Source: an uncultured Gemmatimonadota bacterium
GTDB taxonomy: Bacteria; JAAXHH01
Assembly (NCBI GenBank): GCA_951812955.1
Contig: OX638340.1
Location: 2,240,001-2,304,000, forward strand
Direction of reading: 5' to 3'
DNA length: 64,000 bases
How positions within the stretch are numbered: position 1 is the stretch's first letter; the number at the start of each line of letters is the position of its first letter. The notes below the pieces were generated by a model. It ran no database searches. It was not told the origin of the DNA and was given only the letters and a program-made list of their open reading frames with translations. This document shows positions 10,381 to 57,697 of this stretch, in pieces. The position numbers and the translations under genes were made by a program.

Positions 10381-11136
10381 ATGACTCCCCACGAAAGATA
10401 CCTCTTCGACCTGCAGGGTTTTATCGAGGTCCCGGACGCGTTGGACGCCGGGCAGCTCGCAGAACTGAACGGCATACTGGACGAGAAGATCGACGGGGCC
10501 ATGGCACCCGGCGCCACCACCCACCGATTCGGCTTCACCCTGCTCGACTGGGGACCAACCTACCGGGAACTGATCGACAATCCGCGGATAGATCCTTATC
10601 TGGAACAACTGATCGGTCCGAAGTACCGGCTGGACCACGATTATGCCGATATCATCCGAAAAGGCGACGGTCCAATCGGCACGACCCTCCACGGAGGCGC
10701 CATCCCCTTCGACCCCCTCTACTCCTACACCTGCACCAACGAAGAGATCCGTTGCGGCCTGACTGTGGTCGCCTACTACCTGAAGGACGTAAATCCAGGC
10801 GACGGCGGATTCGGCTGCGTGCCCGGCAGCCATAAGAGCAACTTCCGGTTCCCGGACGAGTGGCGCAACCTCAAGACCGACCAGCCCTTCATCCGCGCCG
10901 TAACCGGCAAGGCCGGCACCGCCGTCATATTCACCGAGGCCCTGACCCACGGCACCATGCCCTGGCACGGTGACGAGCGCCGCACCCTCTTCTACAAGTA
11001 CTCGCCCAATTCGATATCCTGGTACGCGGAATACTATGACGCCGACCGGTACGAAGGTCTGACGGAACGGCAGCAGGAGATCCTTGAGGCACCGAACGCG
11101 CGGTATGGAGAACGGTCTAAGCGTGGGGTTGTGTAG
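10381..11136 (+). CDS. Phytanoyl-CoA dioxygenase (PhyH) family protein
   Basis: N-terminal ERYLFDLQGFIEVPDALDAGQL, typical of PhyH-family proteins. 251 aa. Confidence 0.65.
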   Translation: MTPHERYLFDLQGFIEVPDALDAGQLAELNGILDEKIDGAMAPGATTHRFGFTLLDWGPTYRELIDNPRIDPYLEQLIGPKYRLDHDYADIIRKGDGPIGTTLHGGAIPFDPLYSYTCTNEEIRCGLTVVAYYLKDVNPGDGGFGCVPGSHKSNFRFPDEWRNLKTDQPFIRAVTGKAGTAVIFTEALTHGTMPWHGDERRTLFYKYSPNSISWYAEYYDADRYEGLTERQQEILEAPNARYGERSKRGVV

Positions 11137-11214
11137 GTGGGCTTTACGGATAGACCAGTTGATATTACGACCACATTTATTTGCTCATTGATTTACTGTA
11201 TCTCGAGGTTACAA

Positions 11215-11505
11215 ATGGACGTTAAGGAAGCCGTAAGTACGGCCATAAAACATATTGCAGATGTATACTCGGAAGAGGGAATCTCGCATATTGGATTAGA
11301 AGAGGTAGAATACGACGAGATTAACTCACAATGGAACGTGACCGTTGGATTTGCACGTAAGTGGGACTTCCCTACTCCGGTTCTTATCCCCGTATTACCT
11401 TCACCAAGACCAAACCAAAGAACCTACAAAATCGTAGTAATTCGTGATAGAGACAAGAAGGTCACCGCAATGAAGATAAGGGATTTAGCTACGTCGAATG
11501 AATAG
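11215..11505 (+). CDS. Small hypothetical protein, possible cognate partner of the downstream PIN protein. First gene of the lower-GC insert.
   Basis: ATG with AGG Shine-Dalgarno about 8 nt upstream. The ORF track starts at a GTG at 11137, immediately after the PhyH stop. The 3' end overlaps the PIN gene by 8 nt. No recognisable antitoxin fold. Confidence 0.4.
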   Translation: MDVKEAVSTAIKHIADVYSEEGISHIGLEEVEYDEINSQWNVTVGFARKWDFPTPVLIPVLPSPRPNQRTYKIVVIRDRDKKVTAMKIRDLATSNE

Positions 11506-11968
11506 TGTGCTTATAGATACGAATCTACTTGTCCTTTTGGTTGTAGGATCTACCGATAGAGAGTTTATTAGTCGACATAAACGCACAAAATCGTTCATAC
11601 CCAGAGACTATGACGAACTGACACGTCTGTTGTCGGGATCTCGTGAGTTATGGGTTACTTCTCACTGTCTGGCAGAGACATCGAATCTTCTGAAGCAAAC
11701 CGATAAAACAAAAGCACAGATCTTGTTACATACTCTTGCGGCCTACTGCGATATTGCCCGCGAATCGCATATTCCCAAAGAGACGGTATTTGGATACGAG
11801 AACTACCGCAGACTTGGCGTCACCGACACCGGCTTCATATACTCATCCGAAACAGTCTCTCGATCTATAACAGTAGATTTCAACTTGTACATCGAACTGA
11901 GTAACCTTGGCAGAGAAGTGATAAACTTCCACCACATCCGTGCTTCGTATCTCCAGAATGTCGATTGA
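11498..11968 (+). CDS. PIN-domain protein (VapC-like putative RNase toxin)
   Basis: N-terminal MNSVLIDTNLLVLL is the hallmark PIN start. 156 aa. Located in the lower-GC island. Confidence 0.6.
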   Translation: MNSVLIDTNLLVLLVVGSTDREFISRHKRTKSFIPRDYDELTRLLSGSRELWVTSHCLAETSNLLKQTDKTKAQILLHTLAAYCDIARESHIPKETVFGYENYRRLGVTDTGFIYSSETVSRSITVDFNLYIELSNLGREVINFHHIRASYLQNVD

Positions 11969-12089
11969 CACGACGATCACACAGTTTTGCACATTCCAGT
12001 GCTTAGTTTTTGGTCAAGACCAACCTGTAGTTAAAACCAACCAATGGCCCTGAAGAAATCCCAAAATTTGGTAAACACTGCCAGGAGAG

Positions 12090-13034
12090 ATGCCACCTAT
12101 GCTTGACGAATTGGTTGGATGTATCGATGAACTTAAAGATCGTATTTCCAAATACCGAAACTCACTAAATGAGAACGAAACTCGTACTCGAATGCAGTTA
12201 ATAGATCCGCTGCTTCGTGTGCTGGGCTGGGACGTCTCCGATCCACGGTACGTTATCCCAGAATTCAAGGTGTCCGATGGTTGGGCTGACTATGCCTTAT
12301 TGCGGGATGATGGTAAGCCTGCTGCTATGGTGGAAGCTAAAAAACTGGACGAACCGTTAAAGCCCGCACACCGTGCTCAGATGTTGAAATACGCAATTGA
12401 GTTGGGTATCCCATACACTGGTTTGACAGATGGAAATCACTGGGAGTTGTACAATGTTTTCCAACCGGTACCTATGGAGGACAAACAGATCTTGGATGTT
12501 ACTTTATTGGATTCCCACTCCCACGAAAGTGCACTAAAGTTACTGCTGCTCTGGAATCCAAATCTAGACGCCGGCAGCGCGGTGAAAGCAAATGAACCTG
12601 TTCTCGTCGACACTCAGAATGGCGGTTCGATTCCTCCAATAATCGTTCCGCCACCATCGAACTGGAAGGCACTTTCAGATTACGAACCACCAGCAGGAAC
12701 ACCCGCACCTAAGGCTATTAGGCTTTGGGATGACTCAGAAAGAGAAGTGCATCATTGGTATGAAATTCTCACCATAGTAGCCGAAAAGCTCTACAACGAA
12801 AATGTCCTTACATTGGAACATATACCGATTCAATGGGCTAAAAAGACCTATAGTATTCACTCTCAACCAGTACATCCGACCGGCAACAAGTTTGAAAATC
12901 ATAAAGAAATCGGTAACTCGGGATTGTTCGTAAACGTAAATTTAAATACCGGTCAAGTACGAAATAACACCCGGAATCTACTGAAGAAATACAACATTGG
13001 TACAGAGAAGGTTTACCTCAAGGTAGCCGATTAG
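12090..13034 (+). CDS. Stand-alone type I restriction enzyme HsdR N-terminal-like (PD-(D/E)xK nuclease) domain protein with an uncharacterised C-terminal half
   Basis: NETRTRMQLIDPLLRVLGW ... DGWADYALL ... AAMVEAKKLDE matches the HsdR_N motif (ETRT..IDP.L..LGW, D...EAK). Confidence 0.6.
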   Translation: MPPMLDELVGCIDELKDRISKYRNSLNENETRTRMQLIDPLLRVLGWDVSDPRYVIPEFKVSDGWADYALLRDDGKPAAMVEAKKLDEPLKPAHRAQMLKYAIELGIPYTGLTDGNHWELYNVFQPVPMEDKQILDVTLLDSHSHESALKLLLLWNPNLDAGSAVKANEPVLVDTQNGGSIPPIIVPPPSNWKALSDYEPPAGTPAPKAIRLWDDSEREVHHWYEILTIVAEKLYNENVLTLEHIPIQWAKKTYSIHSQPVHPTGNKFENHKEIGNSGLFVNVNLNTGQVRNNTRNLLKKYNIGTEKVYLKVAD

Positions 13035-13444
13035 GTAGTTTCGTTGACCTACCATGTTGAGGAGTGATATTTCTTGATCTCCACAGACAAGGTTAAGGGT
13101 AAACCACAGCATACCTCCTCACTATCAGGCACGGTTCCTCAGTACGTTGAAGCGATATCAGCAACTCGCTAGCTAGCAGCTACCTGCCCCGTCGCATGGA
13201 ATACTGGGTACAAACCGTCTTTCACTTTAGTGGCGATTTGTTCACGGCTCCGTTCGTCAAATACAATTGAGCCCACTAATTCCACCTGTTTACCTCGACA
13301 AACAAGAGTACAGATCAATCACTTCGTATGACAAAACTCATTCAACTTCTATTCGAAATTGGAATCGGTGACCACCACTCAACCTCTGAATCGTGTGAGA
13401 CTGATGAAGATTCGCTGGTACATGGAAAGGATAATGGAGTGTAA

Positions 13445-15622
13445 TTGATGAATTCAACGTCTGAAGAAACCACCACCCGTCCCTGTTGGTTTGTGGGCGC
13501 CAGTTATTCTGGTACGGGCGATCAAACTGAGCGATTTCTCACGGAAGGTATCTGGGAGAACGGCTTCGACAACGATCATCCGGCCGTCGCGATGACCAAA
13601 ACCATTCAGCCCGGAGACCCAATCGCGATCAAGTCCGCCTACGTTCGCAAACACGACCTACCTTTTGACAGTCGCAACCAGTTCGTATCCGTAATGGCGA
13701 TCAAGGCCATCGGGACGGTTTTAGAGAACATCGGTGATGGCCATACCGTTAAGGTTAAATGGAATAAGGAGGTAACTCCGCGAGAATGGTATTTCTTTAC
13801 TAACAGAGGTACAGTTTGGAAAGTATCGCCTGGTAGTGACTGGTATTCCGACGCCCTGATCGGATTCGCGTTCGAGAACAAGCCGCAGGATATCGATCGT
13901 TTCTTAAAAGTGCCGTATTGGAGGGAGAGGTATCGAGGAGACACGCTCAATGATCAACGGTTTGCGTGGACGAGGTTCTACGAGGCCTTTGCGGATAAGC
14001 TGCTCACATATAGGAACAAGCGCTTAGACTTAATAAATGGTATACAAGAAATAGCTGCCAGAGAGTATGCCATGTTGGTTCTGAGGGATCAGTTTCGGGA
14101 CGGTACGATCGGTCCACTCAAAGACATATGCCCATTTACTACCATCGGATTGTTCAATAAGGGAATAACGAATAGCAATCGAAGATCAATTGCATCAGAA
14201 CTCGCTGAATTGCTGGGAGTGTCAGAGTCGGTTCCGGATTCATTCGATGGAATACCTGTTCTCAACAATCAGAATTCCTGGTTTTTTTCGTATGAAAAAA
14301 ACCGACGACCGGAAGATATTGAAATCCTTTGGAATGTTTACTCCCGTGCAATTGCCTTCGCTGATTCAGATGATTCCGATGCGCGATCTGCTTTCGTCTC
14401 TGCTTACGACGACGCATCCGAGGTTTCTCACGTAGGTTGGAAACTTACATTTGGGCTGTATTGGATACGGCCTTGGGATTTCCCCGTCCTCGACACGAAT
14501 ACCCGGCGTTACCTGGACAAGAAACTCAATATTGAGATCGGACTAAATGGACCGAAAAGGGGATACTGTAGTGCGAACGACTACCTGACGGTCCATGACA
14601 CACTTGAAAAGAGGTTTCTGGAGGACACATATCCGGTTCGTTCTTTTCCAGAACTAGCACGCGAAGCCTGGTTGTATAAGCCCGGTGACCCGGATCCCCC
14701 GCCAGATAGCGGTCTGGATCCCCCGCCACCACCTGTCCCTTATTCACTCGATGATATCGTGAAAGACGGCTGTTTCATTGCCAGAGATAAACTCGAGTCG
14801 ATACTCAATCGACTCCGTACCAAGAAAAACCTCATTCTACAAGGCCCTCCAGGAACCGGGAAGACTTGGCTCGCCAGGAAGTTGGCCTACGCTTTGATCT
14901 GTGAGCGAGACGAAAGCAAGGTTCGTTCGGTACAGTTCCATCCCAATCTCTCTTACGAAGATTTCGTACGTGGTTGGCGGCCGGCGGGAGATGGTAAACT
15001 TACGCTCGTAGATGGCCCCTTCATCGCCATAAGGGACGAGGCCGAAAAAGATCCTACTACTCGATACGTCTTGGTCATCGAAGAGATCAACCGGGGCAAT
15101 CCCGCACAGATTTTCGGCGAGATGCTGACATTGTTGGAGACCGACAAGCGAACTCCAGACGAAGCCTTGGAATTGGTTTATTCAAAGACTCCGGATGAGC
15201 GATTCTTTGTTCCTAACAATCTGTTTGTCATCGGGACGATGAACATTGCTGATCGTTCACTGGCACTTGTAGACCTGGCATTACGCCGTAGATTTGCATT
15301 TATCGATCTGGAACCTACCCTTGGCAAGACTTGGCGAGACTGGGTCCATTCTAAAAACGGGATAGATAACGAGACTCTCACCGAAATTGAGCATCGTATA
15401 GATGATCTGAACCGGACGATCTCCAATGATTCCGGTCTTGGCTCGCAATTTCGCTTGGGGCACAGTTATGTGACGCCGCCGTTTGAACAGCCGATTAAAG
15501 ATGGGAGAAAGTGGTACAGGGAAGTCGTTGAAACGGAAATTGGACCACTACTCGACGAATACTGGTTCGAAGACCTCGCGAAATCTAGAAACGCAAAAAA
15601 GAAACTTTTGGATGGTTTTTAG
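13445..15622 (+). CDS. mcrB: McrB-family AAA+ GTPase (5-methylcytosine-specific restriction subunit homolog) with a long (about 440 aa) divergent N-terminal region
   Basis: McrB signatures are present: ILQGPPGTGKTW (Walker A), FHPNLSYEDFVRGWRP, VIEEINRGNPAQIFGE (NxxN GTPase motif), FVIGTMNIADRS and ALRRRFAFIDL. Confidence 0.85.
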   Translation: MMNSTSEETTTRPCWFVGASYSGTGDQTERFLTEGIWENGFDNDHPAVAMTKTIQPGDPIAIKSAYVRKHDLPFDSRNQFVSVMAIKAIGTVLENIGDGHTVKVKWNKEVTPREWYFFTNRGTVWKVSPGSDWYSDALIGFAFENKPQDIDRFLKVPYWRERYRGDTLNDQRFAWTRFYEAFADKLLTYRNKRLDLINGIQEIAAREYAMLVLRDQFRDGTIGPLKDICPFTTIGLFNKGITNSNRRSIASELAELLGVSESVPDSFDGIPVLNNQNSWFFSYEKNRRPEDIEILWNVYSRAIAFADSDDSDARSAFVSAYDDASEVSHVGWKLTFGLYWIRPWDFPVLDTNTRRYLDKKLNIEIGLNGPKRGYCSANDYLTVHDTLEKRFLEDTYPVRSFPELAREAWLYKPGDPDPPPDSGLDPPPPPVPYSLDDIVKDGCFIARDKLESILNRLRTKKNLILQGPPGTGKTWLARKLAYALICERDESKVRSVQFHPNLSYEDFVRGWRPAGDGKLTLVDGPFIAIRDEAEKDPTTRYVLVIEEINRGNPAQIFGEMLTLLETDKRTPDEALELVYSKTPDERFFVPNNLFVIGTMNIADRSLALVDLALRRRFAFIDLEPTLGKTWRDWVHSKNGIDNETLTEIEHRIDDLNRTISNDSGLGSQFRLGHSYVTPPFEQPIKDGRKWYREVVETEIGPLLDEYWFEDLAKSRNAKKKLLDGF

Positions 15623-16743
15623 TGGTGAATGGCCCAGTAGTTAGTACGGCTGACGAGACGATCGAACAGGCCGGGTATATCGGTCGTATCCCTTTACGAA
15701 ATATCTGGCTGCTCATGCTTTACGCCTCTGACCTTTTCAGGCAACTTGATGCGTCTGAATACCGCTCCTTCGAAGATAATCCTGATGACCTGCCCGATCT
15801 GGTTGCCGAGATCCTATCACATGAAGTCGAACGTCGACTAAAGCGAAATCTGAGTTACGGCTACCAATACCGTAACGAAGTGCTCGGACGGGTTCGCGGA
15901 CGTATCGACCTTTTACAAACCGAAGCTCATCAACTACTGCAACGCGGCATGGTCGCCTGTCGATTCGACGAACTGACAATCGACACACCGAGGAACAGGT
16001 ACGTTCGATCCGCCCTCGAGATGATATCCAAATATGTTCGTCGAAAAGACCTGGCTCACCAGTGCAGGTCCCTCGTTGGAAGCCTTAGGCGACAGGGAGT
16101 CGTTGGAGAACGACCTGGGCGTGAGGTGACGTCAGTTGAGCGATACGGTAGACATGACGCTGTTGACCGCAAGATGGTGGATGCGGCTCGTCTTGCCTTC
16201 GAAATGGCCATTCCGACCGAGCAGACCGGTTCCAGGCACCTTCCACTACCGGACCGTGATATAAACTGGATTCGCAGACTCTATGAGAAAGGCGTTGCAG
16301 GATTCTATGATGTGGTACTTTCCAGAAGGGGATGGAATGTGTATCCGGGAACGATTCTCAGATGGCCCACGACAGTCAGAAGTCCGCGAATAGACGGGAT
16401 ACTACCCTCCATGCGGACCGATATTGTGTTGGATCATGTTGACGAAGGCCGACGGATCGTTATAGACACGAAATTCAACTCGGTTTTGTCGAGAGGTTGG
16501 TATCGAAATGAAGGGATACGAAGCGGATACATGTACCAGATCTATGCTTACCTTAGGTCGCAGGAAGAGAGTGGTGATCCGCTTGATTGTAATGCAGAGG
16601 GAATGTTTCTCCATCCGTCGGTTGGTGAGATGTTCAACGAATGGGTAGATATTCAGGGTCATCGGATCCACTTCAATACCGTTGATCTCGCAACCGATAC
16701 ACAGACCATCAGATCGCAGTTGTTGGATGCGGTGAAACCTTAA
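15622..16743 (+). CDS. mcrC: McrC-family nuclease subunit
   Basis: GTG start overlapping the mcrB stop (TAGTG), 373 aa, C-terminal PD-(D/E)xK-like IVLDHVDEGRRIVIDTKF. Position immediately after mcrB supports the call. Confidence 0.7.
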   Translation: MVNGPVVSTADETIEQAGYIGRIPLRNIWLLMLYASDLFRQLDASEYRSFEDNPDDLPDLVAEILSHEVERRLKRNLSYGYQYRNEVLGRVRGRIDLLQTEAHQLLQRGMVACRFDELTIDTPRNRYVRSALEMISKYVRRKDLAHQCRSLVGSLRRQGVVGERPGREVTSVERYGRHDAVDRKMVDAARLAFEMAIPTEQTGSRHLPLPDRDINWIRRLYEKGVAGFYDVVLSRRGWNVYPGTILRWPTTVRSPRIDGILPSMRTDIVLDHVDEGRRIVIDTKFNSVLSRGWYRNEGIRSGYMYQIYAYLRSQEESGDPLDCNAEGMFLHPSVGEMFNEWVDIQGHRIHFNTVDLATDTQTIRSQLLDAVKP

Positions 16744-16834
16744 ACTGACTTTGCTCTCGACATAGTCGTTCCACCAGCCCATTTCCCGCATCCGTTTGGT
16801 GTGTTCGGCAGCTTCGGTAATCTCAAGATTTGAC

Positions 16835-17761
16835 TCACCCCGCCTTCCTGAAGACCTCGAAACGACGGTCCAGCCGGTCCTGGTCCGGATGGTCACGGGT
16901 GCGTGAAGGCAGGTGCAGTCCCGATCCGTCCAGTTGCTTGAGGGCCTGGAGCATGGGACCGTCATCCTTGTCCAGCAGGCGGTCGGATACGTGCAGCCGG
17001 TAGTCGGGATCAATGCCGATCAGGTGGGCGTCAAAGGCCGCATGATGAATCTTGGACAGGGCCAAGCCGTTGGGTACGACGGGTTGTCCCAATGCCTCGT
17101 CGCCATCGGCAATGATGTGGGCGGCATCCAGTAACTGCGTTTCCGGTAGGCCGGTAATGGCACAGCGGCCGCGATAGGCGTGAAGGACAGCCTCGCGGAA
17201 CGTGGCTTGGTGGAGTCGTTCCTTGACCATGCGCAGGGCATACCGCCGCTCTACCGCGTTAATCGGAGCTTCCATCTCGGCCTGGTTGGGGTTCCCAAAG
17301 GCAAGCGTGGACTTGAGCGCGAATCCATCCCAATTGGAGATGAAGGTGGGAATGATCGCCTGATACCGGCTGGGAGACACACCGAGAAAGTAGATCACGG
17401 GAATCTGATTCTCCCAGGCAACCTTTAACCACTGGTTGTCTGCTGCTGCCGGGTCCTGTCCCATGAAGGCGTAGTCCACGGAATCGTTGCCCTCGAAAAT
17501 CTGGCTGTGGACCTGCTTTTGGTCGTCGTACCAGACTCGGCCGCCCGGTCTGGGGTACACGGTCCTGATCGAGAGAAGGTACCGCATCCGGCGCGGCTTG
17601 AATATGCCCCGCTGCGGATTGACAAGGGGGATCCTTTCGCCTTCGAATACGAACCCCGGCGCCAGTTCGTCCCTCGTAAGGTGGCCATGGGTTTCACTCA
17701 GCCGCCGCACGTGATCGAACGCGGCCATCCGCATCCTCGGATCTCGGTCGTCGACGTTCAT
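16835..17761 (-). CDS. HNH_2-family endonuclease with an N-terminal putative DNA-modification reader domain (type IV restriction-like)
   Basis: C-terminal YRGRCAITGLPETQLLDAAHIIADGDE ... NGLALSKIHHAAFD is the HNH_2 pattern (C..TG...L.AAHI.P ... NGL.L....H..FD). Confidence 0.7.
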   Translation of the reverse strand: MNVDDRDPRMRMAAFDHVRRLSETHGHLTRDELAPGFVFEGERIPLVNPQRGIFKPRRMRYLLSIRTVYPRPGGRVWYDDQKQVHSQIFEGNDSVDYAFMGQDPAAADNQWLKVAWENQIPVIYFLGVSPSRYQAIIPTFISNWDGFALKSTLAFGNPNQAEMEAPINAVERRYALRMVKERLHQATFREAVLHAYRGRCAITGLPETQLLDAAHIIADGDEALGQPVVPNGLALSKIHHAAFDAHLIGIDPDYRLHVSDRLLDKDDGPMLQALKQLDGSGLHLPSRTRDHPDQDRLDRRFEVFRKAG

Positions 17762-17770
17762 CTCAGTCCT

Positions 17771-18787
17771 TTACCCCCGGTAAATCCTCTCATTGTGCCA
17801 GGATAGTACTTCGGTGGACGGCTGGTCCACCGCATTCCTGGGAACGACAATCTGTTTCCCGTGCAAAGAGTAGTAATCGCGCCCGTTCTCGAATTCCTCC
17901 CGGACCTGTCCGCTGACCTCGAAGTGCAATTCAGGGGTCACCGTTACGTATCCGGAATCGAACAGCCCGTGGATGTCGCGCCTTAGCAGCAGTCCGTTCC
18001 TGGCTTCGTGGATGCCCCCTTCGCTGTAGGGACGGATGTGCGCGGCATCAAGGGCCGGCAGCGTCCGTTCGCGGGTAACTGCGCAACGGCGGTCGTAAAG
18101 GTCGGTTACCAGGGCCCTGAAAGCACCTTGACCGAGACGCGGTTTGACCAGTTGCGGTTTGCCGTAAAGGGTTTGCCCGGCCAGGAGGCCTGAGGGTTCG
18201 GCCACGATGCCGGCAGGATTTGCAGATACACTGGTTGGCTGTCGGAATTCCAAACGGCCGTTGACTGCGTCCCACAATGCCCGTCCGTCTGAGTCACCGG
18301 TACTAAATGTCTTTAGTGACACGATGTTCGGCGACCATGTCGACGGCACATCGACAAACTCGGATGCCTCGAAGAAGAAGGGTTGGGTAAGGATCCGGCA
18401 GCCAATCTTGTAATCGCTCGGCTCACGTGGGTCAACATTACGGTAACGTGAGATACGATTTCGCATTTCCTGCAATGTCTCGGCACCGTTGGCTTCCCCG
18501 AATGCTTCCCATGCAAGGGAACAAGGCATCACATTGGCATAGGCAAAAACGCCGCCGCCAACGATTACGTTGTACGGCGCGTGTAGCTTGAAGAGGAACA
18601 GTTCACCGGGCTGAAGTGCCTTGAAGTTCGTGCCAGAAGGCGCCCAGAAGTTGACCTCCTCCAGGTGCGGCTTCTGCCGGAGAGTCTTGAACCAGTCCCC
18701 GTCGGTCACGGCAACGACCAGCTTGATGTCCATAGCGCGAATTCCGGTAAACTTTGGTGCTATTGGGATACAGGCAGATCCGATCAA
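17771..18787 (-). CDS. HNH_2-family endonuclease with an N-terminal PUA/EVE-like beta-barrel domain (type IV restriction-like)
   Basis: C-terminal RRCAVTRERTLPALDAAHIRPYSEGG ... NGLLLRRDIHGLFDSGYVTV. N-terminal KLVVAVTDGDWFKTLRQ..VNFWAPSG..GELFLFKL resembles PUA-like modified-base readers fused to nucleases. Confidence 0.7.
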   Translation of the reverse strand: MIGSACIPIAPKFTGIRAMDIKLVVAVTDGDWFKTLRQKPHLEEVNFWAPSGTNFKALQPGELFLFKLHAPYNVIVGGGVFAYANVMPCSLAWEAFGEANGAETLQEMRNRISRYRNVDPREPSDYKIGCRILTQPFFFEASEFVDVPSTWSPNIVSLKTFSTGDSDGRALWDAVNGRLEFRQPTSVSANPAGIVAEPSGLLAGQTLYGKPQLVKPRLGQGAFRALVTDLYDRRCAVTRERTLPALDAAHIRPYSEGGIHEARNGLLLRRDIHGLFDSGYVTVTPELHFEVSGQVREEFENGRDYYSLHGKQIVVPRNAVDQPSTEVLSWHNERIYRG

Positions 18788-19076
18788 CGGACAACCGCAA
18801 CCGTGCGTCTCGCTGATCGAGCCTTATCATCTAAAATAAAAGACGGCAACCATGGCAGGTCAAGTGCCGCCTGTGCGACCCGGTTTTTGACGTTTGGAAC
18901 ACAGAACGAGTGCTTCCAGATTGCCTTGACCAAATGTACCTGTTAGTTTACTGAACGTTGGTACACTTGATCTCATAAGTTATCAGGAGATTACGAGCGA
19001 GTAGTGAAAGGAACGATTCATATCTTATGTTGTGTAATTTAAATCATATATCGGAAATAGTACATAGGGGAGTTGT

Positions 19077-19274
19077 GTGGTGAATAGTAACTCAAAAGAT
19101 AATAACGAACGGCGATCGCCGATAAAAACCGCCAAACATGACAACTCGAGTGACGAAAACAATCCCCCAGCCAACCTGGCGGAAGCGATACGCGCCCGTT
19201 TTGCACCGTTGGGTGGGATAGAACTGGATCTTCCGCCACGCGAACCCATGCGCGAACCGCCCGAATTCAAATAA
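19077..19274 (+). CDS. Possible degenerate RHH/VapB-like antitoxin remnant: only a C-terminal tail (AEAIRARFAPLGGIELDLPPREPMREPPEF) is retained
   Basis: The C-terminal motif resembles the toxin-binding tails of FitA/VapB antitoxins. The N-terminal half is low-complexity and has no RHH. It lies in an AT-rich intergenic patch with no adjacent toxin. Confidence 0.25.
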   Translation: MVNSNSKDNNERRSPIKTAKHDNSSDENNPPANLAEAIRARFAPLGGIELDLPPREPMREPPEFK

Positions 19275-19359
19275 TGAGAACGCATTAGCGCTGACTGGAA
19301 ACTGTCCCATATGAACCCGGCAATTCCGCACTGGTAATCCAACCAACAAAGGACACCCC

Positions 19360-20754
19360 ATGCCCCCGATCGACATCGGCTCACGCCGCGAGCTCTTTGT
19401 AGACTCATTTCTGATCGACACCCTCACGGACGCCCACCAACATCTTCACGAACCCGTTCTAAAGGAGACGGTATTCCGCGTAGAGGAACCTCTGGAGAAC
19501 GCCTGTACGGGTTGCTACAACCTGGTACAGACAGACGGCAAAGTCCTGGTGTATTACCGCGGCTATCACCCCACGGGCAAACACGAGGATCTGCCCGAGG
19601 GTTGGGCGGAAACGCAGACGACAAACCTGCTGGTCAGCGATGACGGCATCCACTTCGAACGGCCGAACCTGGGCCTGGTGGAAGCGGAAGGTTCGAAGGA
19701 CAACAACATCCTCGTCCGGGGCCGCGAGGCACATAACTTCTGCGTCTTCCTGGACGGCAATCCGGAAGTGGCGCCCGATCAGCGTTTCAAGGCCGTCGGT
19801 GGAGAAGGCAGGGACAGTCTCTTCGGTTTCACTTCATCCGACGGATTGACCTGGAAACCGGTGCAGGACGGTCCCCTCGCGATCACGGGCGCCTTCGACT
19901 CGGTGAACGTGCCCCTTTGGGACGACTACGCGGGTTGCTACCGCCTCTTCAGCCGGTACTTCGAACAGACGGGGGAAGACGGCGTCGGGGTCCGGGCAAT
20001 TCAGAGCTGCACCTCGGAGGATTTCATCCACTGGACCACGCCCGAACATCACGTGTACGGCGAAGGCGTCCCGTTCGAGCACTTCTACACCAACGCCACC
20101 ACGCCATGCCCTGGCGCGGAACACATCCTGCTGTCCTTTCCCATGCGGTTCGTGCCGGAACGGACGAAGGACATCAAGGGCATGGATTACCCCGGGGGCG
20201 GCGTGTCCGACGCTATATTCATGTCGAGTCGGGACGGCGTCCACTGGGACCGGAGTTTCATGGACGCCTGGCTGCGCCCGGGCCTGGAAAAGCGCAACTG
20301 GACGCACCGCAACCAGACGCCGGCCGCGGGAATCGTTCCGACAGCCCCGGACGAATGGTCGATGTACGTCGCCGAGCATTACGGATGGGACACCAACGGC
20401 GTGAGGCGGGTGACCGTCCGTCCCCACGGTTTCGCCTCCGTCCGGGCAGGCTACTACGGTGGCGAACTGTTTACGAAACCCCTGACCTTCACCGGATCGA
20501 CGCTGTATATCAACTACTCGGCGTCCGCCGTGGGCGCCGTGTCCGTGGAGATTCAGGATACGGAAGGTCGAGCCTTGGAGGGATTTGCGGCAAACGACAT
20601 GGATCCCCTGTTCGGCGACGACCTGGACGCCCCGATTACGTGGAAGGGCTCCGACGGTCTGAATGGCCTGAACCGGCTGAACGGTGTGCCGGTCCGCCTG
20701 CGGTTCATCCTGAAGGACGCCGATCTCTTCTCGATCCGTTTCGGAGATTCCTGA
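19360..20754 (+). CDS. Hypothetical 464-aa protein, possibly a beta-propeller glycoside-hydrolase-like fold
   Basis: Long ORF with good coding statistics and no definitive motif recognised. Confidence 0.45.
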   Translation: MPPIDIGSRRELFVDSFLIDTLTDAHQHLHEPVLKETVFRVEEPLENACTGCYNLVQTDGKVLVYYRGYHPTGKHEDLPEGWAETQTTNLLVSDDGIHFERPNLGLVEAEGSKDNNILVRGREAHNFCVFLDGNPEVAPDQRFKAVGGEGRDSLFGFTSSDGLTWKPVQDGPLAITGAFDSVNVPLWDDYAGCYRLFSRYFEQTGEDGVGVRAIQSCTSEDFIHWTTPEHHVYGEGVPFEHFYTNATTPCPGAEHILLSFPMRFVPERTKDIKGMDYPGGGVSDAIFMSSRDGVHWDRSFMDAWLRPGLEKRNWTHRNQTPAAGIVPTAPDEWSMYVAEHYGWDTNGVRRVTVRPHGFASVRAGYYGGELFTKPLTFTGSTLYINYSASAVGAVSVEIQDTEGRALEGFAANDMDPLFGDDLDAPITWKGSDGLNGLNRLNGVPVRLRFILKDADLFSIRFGDS

Positions 20755-35118: not shown

Positions 35119-35490
35119 GCTGAAACCTCCCTTTTAATATTGTACAATTGTACATCATTATGTCAACAAAAATAACGAAACCCCGTATTTACAGGCCTTT
35201 AGGGGTTGCCGCCGACTTGGCGGCATTGACCAGCGGAGATCACCACAGATGCAATTCATGGTACGTGCGGCCGGCCGATTCAAAGGATTATGACGCAAGA
35301 CGTTCGCGCAATTACCCTTTTTCAGCGGCCATTGTTCACACACCGGTCACACTTATTTCGTTATATTTGAATGGAATGGGCGTTTTTTTAGATACCTTCC
35401 TATTGCCTACGTATCCGGTTGACTTCATGCGGGCTTGGATCCGTCGATCGTAACAGCAGTACGTTAATCACTTCTACGGGGATAGCGATC

Positions 35491-36003
35491 ATGAACGGCA
35501 CATTGAGTGAAGGAAGCAGGCGGGAGTTGACGGACAGGTTCGTTTGTGCGGTGCAGCACCTGGGCCGATTGATGCACAACGGACGGCTTGGCGAACTGAA
35601 GAAACTCGACCTGAACGCCCACCAGGCGGATACCCTGATGTTGCTGTATCATCACGGGCCCACCCGGATGGGGACCCTGGCGAACTACCTGGGGAGTAAA
35701 CTGCCGCACATGTCCCTCATTGTAGGTCACCTGGTCAACAAGGGTTACATTCAACGAAGTTCGGATCCAAAGGACCGGAGAGTGGTTATCTGCGAATTCA
35801 CTGCAAAAGGCAGGAAGGCTGCGCAACAGATCATACAACATACGAGGATACTCGTGAACGAGGTGGCCGAAAAGTGGGATTTCGAACAGTTCGAATCCGT
35901 GGTCGAGTCGCTGGAATCGTTTTGGGACCCAGAATCGGGAGTTCCCGGATCAGCCGTTTCTGGGCAGCGCCAGTCCAGAGACAGGTTGTTGGAAGAGATG
36001 TAA
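35491..36003 (+). CDS. MarR-family transcriptional regulator
   Basis: Winged-helix region LNAHQADTLMLLYHHGPTRMGTLANYL...DPKDRRVVICEFTAKGR. Confidence 0.8.
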   Translation: MNGTLSEGSRRELTDRFVCAVQHLGRLMHNGRLGELKKLDLNAHQADTLMLLYHHGPTRMGTLANYLGSKLPHMSLIVGHLVNKGYIQRSSDPKDRRVVICEFTAKGRKAAQQIIQHTRILVNEVAEKWDFEQFESVVESLESFWDPESGVPGSAVSGQRQSRDRLLEEM

Positions 36004-53090: not shown

Positions 53091-53267
53091 CTATGGACTA
53101 CTTGATCCAGATGCAGCCTACAAATGGTTTTTCAACATCTGATTATGGACTACTTGACGCGACTGATTATGGACTACTTGTGATTATGTACCTTCTGTTC
53201 CAGACGCAGATTAAAATGGGTCCTGGACACGGTTATTCATACCTTCTGGACACGGTTATTCATACCT
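53091..53267. repeat. Intergenic direct repeats: gattatggactacttg x3 and c(c/t)tggacacggttattcatacct x2
   Basis: Read from the sequence. The first set lies upstream of the hypothetical gene 52271-53086. The second set lies immediately 3' of the FtsX-permease stop (53256). Confidence 0.8.
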
Positions 53268-55718
53268 CAATGCATGCACAGGGTCGGACAGCGTGGTCTT
53301 CAACGTATGATACATCACAGTCAGCAGAGCGATCATCGTGACGAAAGCCCCTACGAGACCGAAGATGCCAAGATTGACCACGGCGTGATACGCAAACTCC
53401 TGAATCCACGTCATCATCATCGTGTACGCAATTGGCCAGGCTATGGCGTTTGCGATGAGTGACAAAATGACCACCTCGCGGCATTGCAGGGTTAACAGAC
53501 TCAGAAAAGTCGCTCCCAGTGCCTTTCGTATCCCCACTTCCCTGATGCGTTTTCTTGTCGTGTATGAAACAAGGCCGGTCAGGCCCAGGCAAGCGATAAG
53601 AACCGCTATCAGCGAAAAACTGCCGAGTATCGTAATCAGTCTGTTCTCTTCGTTATAGAACTGTGCGGTGTCTTCATCCAGGAAGTAGTAGGCAAATGCG
53701 AAGTCCGGATTGATGTCCCTCCATGTCTCCTCGATGAATGCCAGGGTTTCCTCGTAGTTCTCCGAACCGAGTTTAATGGACACATTCCAGAATTCATCTG
53801 ATGCGAGCATGGCGAGCGGTTCGATTTCCGACCTTAAGCTATTGTAATGAAAGTCATTTACTACCCCGATTACCGTTCTGAAGGATTCAGCGGCCTCCCC
53901 GGACGCTGACATGCCGCGGGGCGCAATCCACCTTATCCTTTCTCCCACGGCTCCTTCAGCAGAATCCCAGCCGGCTTTCGCGGCCGCGCGCTCGTTGAGA
54001 ATGATTGAACGCCTGTCTTCCGCCGCCAGGGTACTCGAGAAAAAACGTCCTGCTTTCATGGTCATGCCAAGCGTACGGAGGTAGTCGGCGTCGACCCAAA
54101 AGGTCCTTACCTGGATTTGCCCTCCGTCGTCTGCGGTTATCGGCCGTATGGTCGTTTGTAGCGGCGGTCTTCCCGGGGGCATGTCGGACCCGGAAACACT
54201 GAGTACGCTATGGTGTTCAAGCAGTCTTTCTTTCAGGGCCGAGAATGTATTTACGACAGGAGTGAATGTGAGCGGAATGACGACTATCCGTTGGTTGTCA
54301 TAGCCCAGGTCCTTGTCCCGGATGTAATCTATTTGCTGATACACGATGCAGGTAGCGATTATCAGAACAGTCGATATGGTGAATTGAAACACGACCAGCG
54401 TTTGACGCAGCGACGCCTTTTTTATCCCTCTGCTAATCCCGCTTTTAAGTACGTCAATCGGTTTGTAAGATGAAAGCAGGAGGGCGGGGTAAATGCCGGA
54501 GACAAGTCCAACCATCAGCGAAGTGCCGAGTAACGCCGGTATCAACTCGGAGATATCATAACTGATCTGGTCTGCTGACGCTGTCATCATACTGCTGAAC
54601 ACGGGAAGCAGGAACTCGATCATTCCCCAAGCGATAGGCAAGGCGATGATGGCGATAAACACAGACTCTCCGATATGCTGTGCCATCAGTTGGGCTCGTT
54701 GCGCTCCCAGCGTTTTACGCAGTCCTATTTCACCTGCACGGCCGCTCGAGTACGCGGTAGCGAGATTGATGAAGTTCACACAGGCAATCATCAGTATCAG
54801 TACCGCTACGGCGCCGTAGAGGAAAACAGTTGAAATACTGCCGTTTGGTTCCAACTCACCCATGCGACTAGAGTAAAGATGAATGGATGTCAGGGGTTGC
54901 AGAGTGAGGTCAAAAGTAATTTGCTCACTTTCAAACCGGGGATTCACGTGCCTGGAAACAAACTCGGGAAACTTGGTGGTCAATTCACCGGGGATGGAAG
55001 CCGGTGTGAGCAACAAGTAAACATGGCTGCGGTTCCAAAGATCCCAGGTGTACCGCTCATCCGGCCTAAAACTGACCGATGATTCACGTTGATGTGCGAG
55101 AAAATCATAATTCATGTGCGAGTTTGGTGGCAGGTCTCGCATTACCCCCACGATACGATAGTCCCAGGTATCTTCGGCGCGAATCGTTTTACCTATGGGA
55201 TCGGCATCCTTGAAGTACTTCAGCGCCATGGATTCGGACAAAACGACCGTAAAGGCGTCTTTCAGCGCGGTTTCGGGGTTTCCTTGAACGAATTCGACCG
55301 AAAAAACATCGAAAAACGTGGAGTCCGTGTGATAGAACCCCTTTTCATAGAATCGATTTTCGCCGTGGGCTATCATGTAGGAAGAACCCGGTTTCAGAAC
55401 GGTCACCGACGCTTGAATTTCCGGGAACTCCTCTTTCAGGACGCTGACCAGGGGGGTCAAGGCAGCAGCGGTTTCCGTGGTGCTGTTCGGACTGTGTATG
55501 TCCATCGCCACGCGGTATATTCTGTCTGAATTCACATTGAACCGATCGAAACTCAGTTCGAACCGCATGTAGAGCATAATCATCACGAAACATGTTACGC
55601 CAATTGTAAGACCCACTACATTGATGGATACATAAGCCTTATTGTTCCACAGGTGGCGAACAGTAGTCCTTAAAATGTTACTGATCAGCGACGCAGGAAG
55701 AAACCCGGTAGCGGCCAT
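53256..55718 (-). CDS. FtsX-like ABC transporter permease with two FtsX domains (MacB/YtrF-like permease-only protein)
   Basis: N-terminal TM, large periplasmic domain, 4-TM FtsX block, second periplasmic domain, second FtsX block. Start moved to the ATG at 55718 (MAATGF). The track ORF begins at an upstream TTG. Confidence 0.8.
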   Translation of the reverse strand: MAATGFLPASLISNILRTTVRHLWNNKAYVSINVVGLTIGVTCFVMIMLYMRFELSFDRFNVNSDRIYRVAMDIHSPNSTTETAAALTPLVSVLKEEFPEIQASVTVLKPGSSYMIAHGENRFYEKGFYHTDSTFFDVFSVEFVQGNPETALKDAFTVVLSESMALKYFKDADPIGKTIRAEDTWDYRIVGVMRDLPPNSHMNYDFLAHQRESSVSFRPDERYTWDLWNRSHVYLLLTPASIPGELTTKFPEFVSRHVNPRFESEQITFDLTLQPLTSIHLYSSRMGELEPNGSISTVFLYGAVAVLILMIACVNFINLATAYSSGRAGEIGLRKTLGAQRAQLMAQHIGESVFIAIIALPIAWGMIEFLLPVFSSMMTASADQISYDISELIPALLGTSLMVGLVSGIYPALLLSSYKPIDVLKSGISRGIKKASLRQTLVVFQFTISTVLIIATCIVYQQIDYIRDKDLGYDNQRIVVIPLTFTPVVNTFSALKERLLEHHSVLSVSGSDMPPGRPPLQTTIRPITADDGGQIQVRTFWVDADYLRTLGMTMKAGRFFSSTLAAEDRRSIILNERAAAKAGWDSAEGAVGERIRWIAPRGMSASGEAAESFRTVIGVVNDFHYNSLRSEIEPLAMLASDEFWNVSIKLGSENYEETLAFIEETWRDINPDFAFAYYFLDEDTAQFYNEENRLITILGSFSLIAVLIACLGLTGLVSYTTRKRIREVGIRKALGATFLSLLTLQCREVVILSLIANAIAWPIAYTMMMTWIQEFAYHAVVNLGIFGLVGAFVTMIALLTVMYHTLKTTLSDPVHALRYE

Positions 55719-55852
55719 GGCGGATCTCCAGCAGCTTAAAACGGGATTTCGTACAGGAAGCAGAAGCCACCCCAACCTTATGCGGACAATATAGTGTTCC
55801 CCTCGACTTTTCGGTACGACATTACAGGCGTAACGCGGCAACCAGGAGCACC

Positions 55853-57697
55853 ATGTCAAGCGAACTGACCAGGACCTACCGCCCGTTCTCGGACTCCCGC
55901 CCCTACACCCGCTGGTGGTGGTTCTACGATGACATCAGGGCGGTGGACATCCGGACGCAGTTGCGATGGGTGCGGGACCAGGGATTCGGTGGCGTGGAGA
56001 TCGCCTTCATGTATCCGCAGCCAGGGTCCGGTGAAGGGCCCCACTGGCTGAGCGAGGCGTGGACCGACTTGGTCGCCTTCGCCAAGGAAGAGGCGGACCG
56101 GCTCGGGATCGGATGCGACTTCACCTTCAGCACGTCCTGGCCCTTCGGTGGGTCGATCGTTCCCGAGGAGGACGCGGGACAGGTATTCGGCGGGCCGGCG
56201 ACCCAGCGCCTGGAAAAGTCGTGGGAACTGTCCTATTTCGGCCGCGGCCGGATCCTGAACCACCTGGACACGGGCGCGTTCAGCCGTTACGCCGAGCAGG
56301 TAGGTGGCGCACTGAAACCCGCCCTGCGCGGTACGACCTCGGGAATGTTCTCCGATTCGTGGGAGGTTTTCCCGGAGGGCCTCTGGAGCGCCCACCTGGA
56401 CCCCGTCTTCAGGGATCGTTTCGGGTACGACCTGGAACCGTTCAAGGCATGTATCGACCAGCATCCCGACGTGCGGTACGATTACCGGAAGATCCTGTCG
56501 GATGCGGCGATCGAGGGCTTCTTCAGGCCCTATGCCGAGGTTTGCCACCGCCTCGGCGCCGTGAGCCGCGTGCAGTGTCACGGGGCGCCGACGGACCTGC
56601 TGGCCGCTTTCGCGCTCGTGGACGTCCCGGAATCGGAGGCCCTGCTGTTCGAGACGTTCTTCTCGGCCATACCGGGTTCGGCCGCGGCCCTGGGCTCTCG
56701 GCCCGTGGTGACCTGCGAGACGTTCACCTGTATCTACGGCTACGCGCCATGGCCCGCGCCGTCACCCCATCACGGCGAGGAGAAGGTGGAGGACATGAAG
56801 CTCATGGCGGACGCGGTGTTCGCCAACGGCGTCAACCACATCGTCTGGCACGGCATGCCCTACAACGCGCCGGGCGGGAACAACACCTTCTACGCGACCA
56901 CGCACGTCGGTCCGGGCAGCGGATTCGCCGGCCGGCTTCCGGCCTTCAACGCCTACATGGCCGAGGCCTCCGATTTCGTCAAGCAGGGCAGAACGTATAC
57001 GGACGTGGCCGTGTACCTCCCACTGGAAGACCACTGGATGTGCCATACGCTGCCCGAGGAACGGCGCGGACCGGCCGCGAACTATTACTGGGAACTGCAA
57101 ACCGTCGAACGGCCCGGTGCCTTGCTTGGGTACCATCCCCTCTGGATATCGACGCCTTTTCTGGAGGAAGCGGAGGTGGAGGACGGCCGCGTTCGATATG
57201 GAGAGGCAGTCTTTTCCGTATTGTATGTGGACGTGGAATGGCTGGACGGCGAAGCCCTGTCGGCCCTGCAGCGGCTGGCAAGGGAAGGTGCGCATATCGT
57301 CATTCCGCGCAGGCCTGCCGCGCCCGGCCACCGTCCGCCTGCGGATTACGAGGATCGCCTGAAACAACTGATGAGCCAACCAGCGGTTACCACTGATCCG
57401 GGTGAGGCGCTGCGGCATCCTCCCCTCGTGAGCGGCCTGGACACGCCGGAATTCTGGTGCAGGGAGGTCGACGGCGACTACCACCTATACTTCGCCCATC
57501 CCGATACGAAGCGCATCCGGTACCCCATGGCCTACGAGGGCTGGCGTTCCACGGGCCTGGTCGAGCGGGAAGTAGTCCTGCATGTCAACAGCCGGGAGCG
57601 GACGGTGCGCCTGGCCTTCGAGCCCGAAGATGCCATGCTGGTCAGGGTATCGGCCACGGGCGCGGTGGACGTGGAACCGGGGCGTGTTGATGAGTGA
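55853..57697 (+). CDS. Putative glycoside hydrolase (TIM-barrel, family uncertain)
   Basis: N-terminal RPYTRWWWFYDD...GFGGVEIAF pattern is reminiscent of bacterial GH families. 614 aa. Low-confidence family call. Confidence 0.45.
   Translation: MSSELTRTYRPFSDSRPYTRWWWFYDDIRAVDIRTQLRWVRDQGFGGVEIAFMYPQPGSGEGPHWLSEAWTDLVAFAKEEADRLGIGCDFTFSTSWPFGGSIVPEEDAGQVFGGPATQRLEKSWELSYFGRGRILNHLDTGAFSRYAEQVGGALKPALRGTTSGMFSDSWEVFPEGLWSAHLDPVFRDRFGYDLEPFKACIDQHPDVRYDYRKILSDAAIEGFFRPYAEVCHRLGAVSRVQCHGAPTDLLAAFALVDVPESEALLFETFFSAIPGSAAALGSRPVVTCETFTCIYGYAPWPAPSPHHGEEKVEDMKLMADAVFANGVNHIVWHGMPYNAPGGNNTFYATTHVGPGSGFAGRLPAFNAYMAEASDFVKQGRTYTDVAVYLPLEDHWMCHTLPEERRGPAANYYWELQTVERPGALLGYHPLWISTPFLEEAEVEDGRVRYGEAVFSVLYVDVEWLDGEALSALQRLAREGAHIVIPRRPAAPGHRPPADYEDRLKQLMSQPAVTTDPGEALRHPPLVSGLDTPEFWCREVDGDYHLYFAHPDTKRIRYPMAYEGWRSTGLVEREVVLHVNSRERTVRLAFEPEDAMLVRVSATGAVDVEPGRVDE

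Follow-up and report, generated by a model that had tools for sequence, protein, structure and literature searches.

A recurrent bacterial operon of two HNH_2 nucleases with predicted SRA-like and PUA-superfamily readers: a candidate pair of type IV restriction enzymes

Introduction

Enzymes that join an SRA domain, or an EVE or other PUA domain, to an HNH nuclease are modification-dependent (PMC6765204; PMC6212794; PMC7897488). TagI (PMC6212794) and VcaM4I (PMC7897488) dimerize through the HNH domain. The HNH domain of TagI and ScoA3IV carries a structural zinc site, Cys3Asp or CxxC (PMC6212794), and the active site of VcaM4I consists of H224, N241, D250 and D254 (PMC7897488). In Streptomyces coelicolor, ScoA3V (Sco5330), a PUA-like-HNH nickase stimulated by N6-methyladenine (6mA) and belonging to a non-EVE PUA clade, is encoded three genes from the SRA-HNH enzyme ScoA3IV (Sco5333); homologs of ScoA3V have been reported from Actinomycetales only (PMC6765204). 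Here we describe a two-gene operon, B followed by A, found in 64,000 nucleotides (nt) of DNA from an uncultured Gemmatimonadota bacterium (assembly GCA_951812955.1, contig OX638340.1, positions 2,240,001 to 2,304,000), a stretch referred to below as the window. Each gene encodes an HNH_2 nuclease domain preceded by a predicted reader domain, the two readers belonging to different folds, and the arrangement recurs across very distant phyla. We lean toward the view that the operon is a horizontally mobile unit of two autonomous, co-transcribed type IV restriction enzymes, whose different base-flipping readers would have complementary specificities.

Results

Locus and operon structure

Features of the operon, in window coordinates, are as follows.

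17771..18733, minus strand: open reading frame (ORF) B, 320 residues, predicted PUA-superfamily (ASCH/EVE-like) reader plus HNH_2 nuclease; first gene of the operon
18248..18733, minus strand: B reader domain, residues 1-162; predicted beta-barrel, with no Pfam or PDB sequence match
18149..18247, minus strand: B linker, residues 163-195; variable, probably disordered
17774..18148, minus strand: B HNH_2 domain, residues 196-320; H232, N246, H255 and D259 invariant
17762..17770, minus strand: spacer from the B stop codon to the A ATG, 9 nt, containing AGGA (ribosome-binding site); operon junction
16835..17761, minus strand: ORF A, 308 residues, predicted cryptic SRA-like reader plus HNH_2 nuclease; second gene of the operon
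17282..17761, minus strand: A reader domain, residues 1-160; predicted N-terminal helix, small helical/strand head, then SRA-like barrel
17177..17281, minus strand: A linker, residues 161-195; conserved (71% mean identity), with a long helix predicted at 169-195
16838..17176, minus strand: A HNH_2 domain, residues 196-308; H215, N231, H239 and D244 invariant, H240 nearly so
18734..19359, no strand assigned: presumed promoter region of the operon, 626 nt, AT-rich (GC content 0.48), between B and the divergent gene at 19360

A preliminary description of this DNA, made from the letters of the window, had placed two tandem minus-strand ORFs, each ending in an HNH_2 motif, at 16835-18787. Both ORFs and both motifs are present, and the one amendment concerns the start codon of B, given in the ORF list as a TTG (17771-18787, a 338-residue form). 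The true start is the ATG at 18733 rather than the TTG at 18787, because 120 B homologs all begin at MxIxLVVAVTD, whose equivalent in the window is that ATG (MDIKLVVAVTD...). The 9-nt gap between the genes contains AGGA, and the two therefore form one operon with B first; their juxtaposition is not a matter of chance, because the same layout recurs in dozens of unrelated genomes. GC content is 0.606 for A (0.74 at third codon positions, GC3) and 0.575 for B (GC3 0.67), with host genes at GC3 0.78-0.82. The region at 18734-19359 yielded no sigma-70 consensus match and no Rfam match, and its portion from about 18873 to about 19338 is not alignable to L081 (LXNJ01001516.1), a metagenomic locus from the same lineage. 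These 626 nt may represent either a promoter region of an unusual kind or a second, small site of variation.

The nuclease domains

The Pfam model HNH_2 (PF13391) matches both proteins above its gathering threshold, at residues 200-251 of A (E 5e-11) and residues 235-283 of the 338-residue form of B (E 4e-12). The nuclease motif reads CAITG..LDAAHI..NGLALSKIHHAAFD in A and CAVTRE..LDAAHI..NGLLLRRDIHGLFD in B. Alignment of A to B is confined to the C-terminal 123 residues, where identity is 29% (E 4e-11). In a PDB sequence search, the C-terminal domain of B matches the HNH domain of VcaM4I (PDB 6yex, E 4.5e-7), and this alignment maps VcaM4I H224/N241/D250/D254 onto B H232/N246/H255/D259, all four invariant among 48 homologs. 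Carried over by the A/B alignment, the equivalents in A are H215, N231, H240 and D244; the first, second and fourth are invariant among 47 homologs and H240 is nearly so. Conservation of the HNH residues, on which the preliminary description had made its reading depend, is thus seen upon alignment in both families. Catalytic residues appear intact, and neither A nor B looks like a dead paralog.

C200 is the sole cysteine of the entire A protein, which therefore has no structural zinc site of the TagI/ScoA3IV kind; judged from its sequence, the A nuclease is of the VcaM4I type, Pfam HNH_2, and not a zinc-finger HNH. A phosphorothioate reader had also been put forward beforehand as something to look for. 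The model NF045808 (phosphorothioated DNA-binding restriction endonuclease) scores the two proteins at 54.6 and 57.5 bits, far short of its cut-off of 180 bits, with the match limited to profile positions 157-284, the HNH half at the C-terminus, and no sulfur-binding domain is detected by this profile in either protein.

The predicted reader domains

The N-terminal halves of A and B share no sequence similarity, in keeping with the preliminary description, which had called them unrelated; its further phrase, paralogous readers, does not hold, as in sequence only the nuclease halves are paralogous. The domain search that it had proposed for the N-termini drew a blank in both Pfam and PDB, and evidence on these domains comes from predicted folds. 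HMMER profiles of both N-terminal domains found nothing meaningful among all PDB sequences at E<=10. Two distant A homologs, from a Vibrio prophage and an Actinomyces plasmid, matched only HNH_2 in Pfam, so that no transitive link to SAD_SRA emerged. An hhalign comparison of the A profile with an unverified UHRF1 SRA sequence gave a probability of 0.2%, a weak test either way; the non-significant alignment paired QRGIFKP with AGVHRPH.

AlphaFold2 models of A and B, built on about 47 homologs each, were then used in fold searches. The model of the A reader matches SRA domains, including those of ScoMcrA, SUVH5, TagI, UHRF1 and MspJI. Six restriction enzymes with SRA-like readers (ScoMcrA, TagI, MspJI, LpnPI, SauUSI and AspBHI) are among its closest structural matches, and among plant and animal SRA domains the scores are 8.3 for SUVH5, 8.1 for KYP, 7.8 for SUVH6, 6.9 for UHRF1 and 6.1 for SUVH9. 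For the B reader, matches fall in the PUA superfamily, with ASCH best, followed by VcaM4I/EVE, YTH and McrB-N; the best single match is ZmASCH. Despite modest model confidence, the results of these fold searches are unusually coherent. By the models, the N-terminal domain of A is predicted to be a cryptic SRA, and that of B a PUA-superfamily fold nearer to ASCH than to EVE. The PUA/EVE-like reader of the preliminary description survives in part, since the fold of B is of that kind but lies nearer ASCH and lacks membership in the Pfam EVE family (PF01878); its broader suggestion, a type IV architecture of reader plus HNH, is supported for both proteins by fold and by HNH_2.

Invariant positions in the A reader are R51 G52 I53 F54 K55 P56, L62-I65, Y78 D80 Q81, Y97, N109 and W144. 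By eye, the GIFKP and LLSI.T motifs, Y78-D-D80-Q81 and Y97 follow the UHRF1 SRA pattern GVHRP ... Y-E-D-D ... Y. In the B reader, T10, D11, W14, N28, F29, W30, P32, G59-G61, W75 and F78 are invariant, and W30-x-P32 and W75 similarly recall the VcaM4I pocket residues W22, P24 and W82. No residue-level alignment of either reader to a known pocket was significant with any tool. The linkers that follow differ in character. Mean pairwise identity in the B linker is 23%, against 74-85% in the flanking domains, its predicted local distance difference test (pLDDT) score is below 50, and B homologs range from 306 to 320 residues in length. The conserved helix predicted in the A linker may be a counterpart of the auto-inhibitory linker helix of VcaM4I (PMC7897488).

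Clustered at 50% identity, the A-type reader family forms 1,454 clusters. The best 150 of the 1,454 representatives include many fragments or frameshifts; the full-length ones always carry HNH_2, and no fusion to another nuclease or effector was found.

Distribution of the B-A pair across bacteria

A and B each have thousands of homologs at 60-85% identity in very distant phyla. A B homolog lies immediately upstream of A, on the same strand and with a gap of 7-16 nt, in 25-30 of the 80 best genome loci, and of the 59 metagenome loci with enough sequence beyond B, 23 have A as the next gene downstream. Paired genes account for about 35-40% of loci with either gene, in at least seven phyla. The pair occurs in Gemmatimonadota, Acidobacteriota, Chloroflexota, Nitrospirota and Alpha-, Beta- and Gammaproteobacteria, and further in Actinomycetota, Bdellovibrionota and Rhodothermales. 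The order B then A is fixed, with a spacer of 6-35 nt in 36 + 23 other loci. Distance matrices for A and B, computed from 37 complete pairs, are correlated (Mantel r 0.79; 2000 permutations all gave lower values), and in these pairs the spacer is always 6-28 nt. No third conserved gene accompanies the pair, as no flanking family appears in more than three of 23 pair loci. Given the fixed pairing, the co-divergence and the lack of a third gene, B and A travel and diverge as a self-contained unit. The absence of a recurring flanking family also speaks against a methyltransferase as obligate partner, in line with type IV enzymes; no DNA methyltransferase partner was detected beside the pairs, whose flanking ORFs were clustered without annotation, and occasional methyltransferases are possible.

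Solo copies are common, with about 60% of A loci lacking B and about 60% of B loci lacking A. Paired and solo A sequences are interspersed on a neighbor-joining tree of A, and no residue in A separates the two states categorically. Partners decay in either direction: five or six solo-A loci keep a 5'-truncated stump of B, and two apparently solo B loci have a frameshifted A after B. Carriage on plasmids is rare: of 72,556 plasmids, 9 have A, 6 have B and none has both. The 50,697 phage records returned only distant HNH matches, and carriage by plasmids or phages was considered as the means of transfer and rejected. A search of the literature found no description of a tandem, operonic, cross-phylum SRA-HNH/PUA-HNH pair, the nearest case being Sco5330/Sco5333.

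Several individual loci are of interest in their own right. At locus L058 (6059-8378), B is split by about 1.35 kb, possibly an insertion element, with residues 1-159 and 142-320 apart. Locus L056 (3841-4755 and 7515-8378) has a second full copy of B 3.5 kb upstream of the pair, and the Foliamicus genome (L033/L037, OZ242252.1) carries two copies of solo A separated by about 10 kb. A solo A copy from a cultured organism, 64.5% identical and annotated only as "HNH endonuclease", is found at 4001-4927 of L163, from the conjugative megaplasmid RPME01 of Methylibium petroleiphilum PM1; it adjoins recombinase and par genes and lies 2.8 kb from a gene of the dCMP deaminase family. In L161 (Vibrio phage 10N.286.54.E5_PE002), a 426-residue distant A homolog at 1078-2358, 27% identical over 85% of A and with a C-terminal HNH_2 domain, lies at the end of a Vibrio prophage, flanked by an integrase/regulator and a PD-Lambda-5 gene, surroundings that constitute a defense-hotspot context.

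Proposed function and alternative explanations

The reading we hold somewhat probable, two autonomous type IV enzymes encoded by one mobile operon, would work as follows. A and B would each dimerize through their own HNH domains, as TagI and VcaM4I do. The N-terminal reader would scan DNA and, at a modified base, flip it into an aromatic pocket, for which Y78/D80-Q81/Y97 in A and W30-x-P32/W75 in B are candidates picked out by eye, and the flipped base would license the HNH dimer to cut nearby. By analogy with characterized enzymes, the SRA-like reader of A would most likely sense cytosines of the 5-methylcytosine (5mC) or 5-hydroxymethylcytosine (5hmC) type, and the PUA/ASCH-EVE-like reader of B some other class, whether 6mA, to which ScoA3V responds, or a further cytosine adduct. 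With both enzymes the cell would restrict a wider variety of hypermodified phage or foreign DNA, and the McrBC genes that adjoin A in the window would add a third independent layer in this lineage only. Autonomy of the two enzymes is favored because A and B are each common alone, no residue in A marks pairing, and solo copies are scattered among paired ones on the tree.

Several observations weigh against this reading. The isolated N-terminal halves match nothing in Pfam at E<=10, whether SAD_SRA, EVE, ASCH or any other model. Confidence in the structural models is modest (pLDDT 66 for A and 59 for B), and falls below 50 in segment 48-79 of A, the SRA core. Pocket assignments in both proteins rest on the by-eye mapping described above. 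Mean pairwise identity of about 73-75% across phyla is unusually high for defense genes. ASCH, EVE and YTH domains often bind RNA, and the ligand of B need not be DNA. Finally, fixed gene order and co-divergence would also fit a heteromeric enzyme.

That last point leads to an explanation we regard as improbable: A and B would form one two-subunit type IV enzyme, a heterodimer through HNH_2 in which the paired nuclease domains carry two readers and follow AND or OR logic, so that cleavage needs, or is triggered by, two different modifications. To our knowledge such dual-reader logic is undescribed for modification-dependent nucleases, and both readers would be new, Pfam-invisible branches of SRA and PUA, possibly with non-canonical ligands, as the glutamine for aspartate in A might indicate. 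The invariant B-to-A order with its 6-35 nt spacer across dozens of phylogenetically distant loci, the Mantel correlation, and the homology of the nuclease halves at 29% identity speak for such an enzyme; known relatives dimerize via the HNH domain (PMC6212794; PMC7897488), and both subunits retain the catalytic residues that a heterodimer would need for a double-strand cut. However, some 60% of the loci for either gene lack the other, solo and paired A share the tree and cannot be told apart by any residue, and decay of one partner leaves the other gene intact. Co-divergence, moreover, is equally expected of two independent genes that travel together.

Equally doubtful, in our judgment, is a role outside modification-dependent restriction, in which the readers would bind RNA, damaged bases or unmodified DNA and the HNH domains would serve repair, RNA processing, toxin-like abortive infection or selfish homing. 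The ASCH, EVE and YTH domains are mostly RNA binders, ZmASCH, the best structural match of B, among them. Neither reader matches the curated SRA or EVE models, conservation between phyla is unusually high, and the PUA-HNH proteins ScoA3II and ScoA3III were not modification-dependent in vitro (PMC6765204). Set against these points are the restriction of the A-type reader to HNH_2 proteins in the best 150 of 1,454 cluster representatives, the six restriction enzymes among the closest structural matches of A, and the homology of the B nuclease to VcaM4I, a proven 5mC/5hmC-dependent enzyme. Patchy distribution, variable neighbors and decaying copies are typical of defense genes, and a distant A homolog stands beside PD-Lambda-5 in a Vibrio prophage hotspot. 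A role in RNA or damage recognition may apply to B in particular.

Tandem paralogs with one inactive partner are common in defense systems, and B is often truncated where A is intact. It is nevertheless very unlikely that one of the two is inactive as a nuclease, a degenerate paralog acting as a regulator, inhibitor or decoy in the manner of a toxin and antitoxin: the H/N/H/D catalytic positions are conserved in both families, each protein is found full-length and alone in many genomes, and truncations run in both directions.

The McrBC island and the variable slot

The genes on the other side of A form an island of lower GC content, with the following features.

11106..16831, plus strand: low-GC island of 5.7 kb, outside the B-A cassette; two small ORFs, an HSDR_N-like ORF, McrB and McrC
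13445-15622, plus strand: McrB, confirmed by domain searches
15622-16743, plus strand: McrC, confirmed by domain searches; converges on A across a 91-nt gap

GC content of McrB and McrC is 0.49-0.51, with GC3 of 0.51-0.52, and GC3 for island genes overall is 0.43-0.52. Nucleotide identity to L081 is 97-99.6% across McrBC (13611-16860) and 80-86% from 16861 on, through A, B and the flanking genes, so that the step falls at the 3' end of ORF A, at about 16860. This step indicates that strains already diverged have recently exchanged the McrBC island horizontally. In a third strain, L001, the flanks are syntenic with the window at 77-83% identity (a PhyH-like gene at 10381-11136 to the left of the slot, and A, B and the gene at 19360 to its right), synteny breaks at 11105 and 16832, and the same slot (L001 9357-15837) holds 6.5 kb of different cargo. 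No direct repeats flank the island boundaries, and there is no tRNA gene in the window. McrB or McrC lies beside A in none of 80 genome loci and beside B in one of 80 metagenome loci, which is L081 itself. Linkage of McrBC to A and B is incidental and confined to this lineage. The two comparisons bear out the proposal of the preliminary description that A and B predate the McrBC insertion; McrBC is a recent arrival at a variable spot where A and B were already resident.

A single three-part system of A, B and McrBC, suggested by adjacency in the window and L081, is hardly credible and was rejected, given that linkage is restricted to the lineage (McrB/McrC are absent from 80 of 80 genome A loci and 79 of 80 metagenome B loci), the orientation is convergent, GC3 is 0.52 versus 0.67-0.74, the identity step falls at the A/McrC boundary, and L001 has other cargo in the same slot.

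The island and its counterparts hold other genes worth recording. Residues 1-432 of McrB (13445-14740) form an N-terminal region of 430 residues without a Pfam match, and the AAA_5/GTPase part, residues 432-722, gives the sole match to E. coli McrB, scoring below the cut-off of NF008457. Two small low-GC plus-strand ORFs at the left end of the island, 11137-11505 and 11498-11968, overlap by 8 nt and have no Pfam, NCBIfam or PADLOC match; the second, which starts MNSVLIDTNLLVLLV, is PIN-like by eye, and the two are possibly a toxin-antitoxin pair that stabilizes the island. A stand-alone plus-strand ORF of 314 residues at 12090-13034 has a weak match to HSDR_N, the nuclease-like N-terminal domain of type I R subunits (Pfam E 1.6e-5), and weak PADLOC matches to type I/IIG systems; it is absent from the island version in L081. 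The L001 cargo consists of a UvrD-family helicase split among three ORFs, with generic GajB-like PADLOC matches, a PD-(D/E)XK nuclease, and three ORFs without matches. Two other low-GC patches in the window, 35419-36003 and 53256-55859, were considered as further defense islands and rejected, as they hold ordinary genes, a MarR-family regulator and a MacB/FtsX-type ABC permease.

Discussion

Against phages with hypermodified DNA, cells deploy type IV enzymes that combine a reader with an HNH nuclease, and these enzymes are also useful tools in epigenetic base mapping. Two very large families, labeled in databases just as "HNH endonuclease" and with readers that no domain model picks up, can now be placed by predicted fold as SRA-HNH_2 and PUA-HNH_2. 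The recurrence and co-divergence of the operon suggest selection for carrying two readers together, and the pair bears on whether type IV specificities are combined by stacking separate enzymes or within heteromers. For restriction-enzyme biochemistry it offers a solid lead. The locus further illustrates how one chromosomal slot is refilled, with near-identical McrBC in two strains whose flanks are 15-20% apart and a helicase and nuclease cargo in a third.

Comparison with known enzymes

Against the phosphorothioate-dependent ScoMcrA and SprMcrA (SBD-[SRA]-HNH, where SBD is the sulfur-binding domain), the match is far below cut-off and restricted to the C-terminal half. With the SRA-HNH class (TagI, ScoA3IV/Sco5333, TbiR51I, MsiJI and VcaCI), A shares the predicted SRA fold but has no SRA similarity detectable in sequence, by Pfam SAD_SRA (PF02182) or by PDB profile search. 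Its nuclease is an HNH_2 of the VcaM4I type that cannot form the TagI/ScoA3IV zinc site, and by its model A would join an SRA-like reader to a different type of HNH domain than those enzymes do; about a third of A copies, moreover, are in an operon with a PUA-HNH paralog. The flipped-base pocket of SRA domains is built of two aromatic residues and a carboxylate, Y55/D58/Y67 in TagI and Y466/D469/Y478 in UHRF1. Y78, D80, Q81 and Y97 of A can be mapped onto it by eye, without a significant residue-level alignment, and on that mapping an invariant glutamine stands three residues after the first pocket tyrosine, in place of the aspartate that specifies cytosine.

Like the EVE-HNH enzymes (VcaM4I, TspA15I and CmeDI), B has a predicted PUA-superfamily N-terminus followed by a linker and an HNH_2 domain, the last of these homologous in sequence to its counterpart in VcaM4I, but the reader of B is not in the EVE family (Pfam PF01878). 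Equivalents of VcaM4I H224, N241 and D254 are kept in B, and the two proteins are similar in length, 309 residues for VcaM4I and 320 for B. A shares the HNH_2 domain of VcaM4I as well, with H215/N231/H240/D244. The architectures of A and B appear to match known classes, yet by sequence their readers are not members of those families.

The nearest precedent for a neighborhood of PUA-HNH and SRA-HNH genes is Sco5330/Sco5333, in which ScoA3V resembles B in its described architecture, a PUA-superfamily reader outside the EVE clade joined to HNH. The Streptomyces genes are neither adjacent nor co-transcribed, in contrast to B and A, which are operonic and found together in many phyla.

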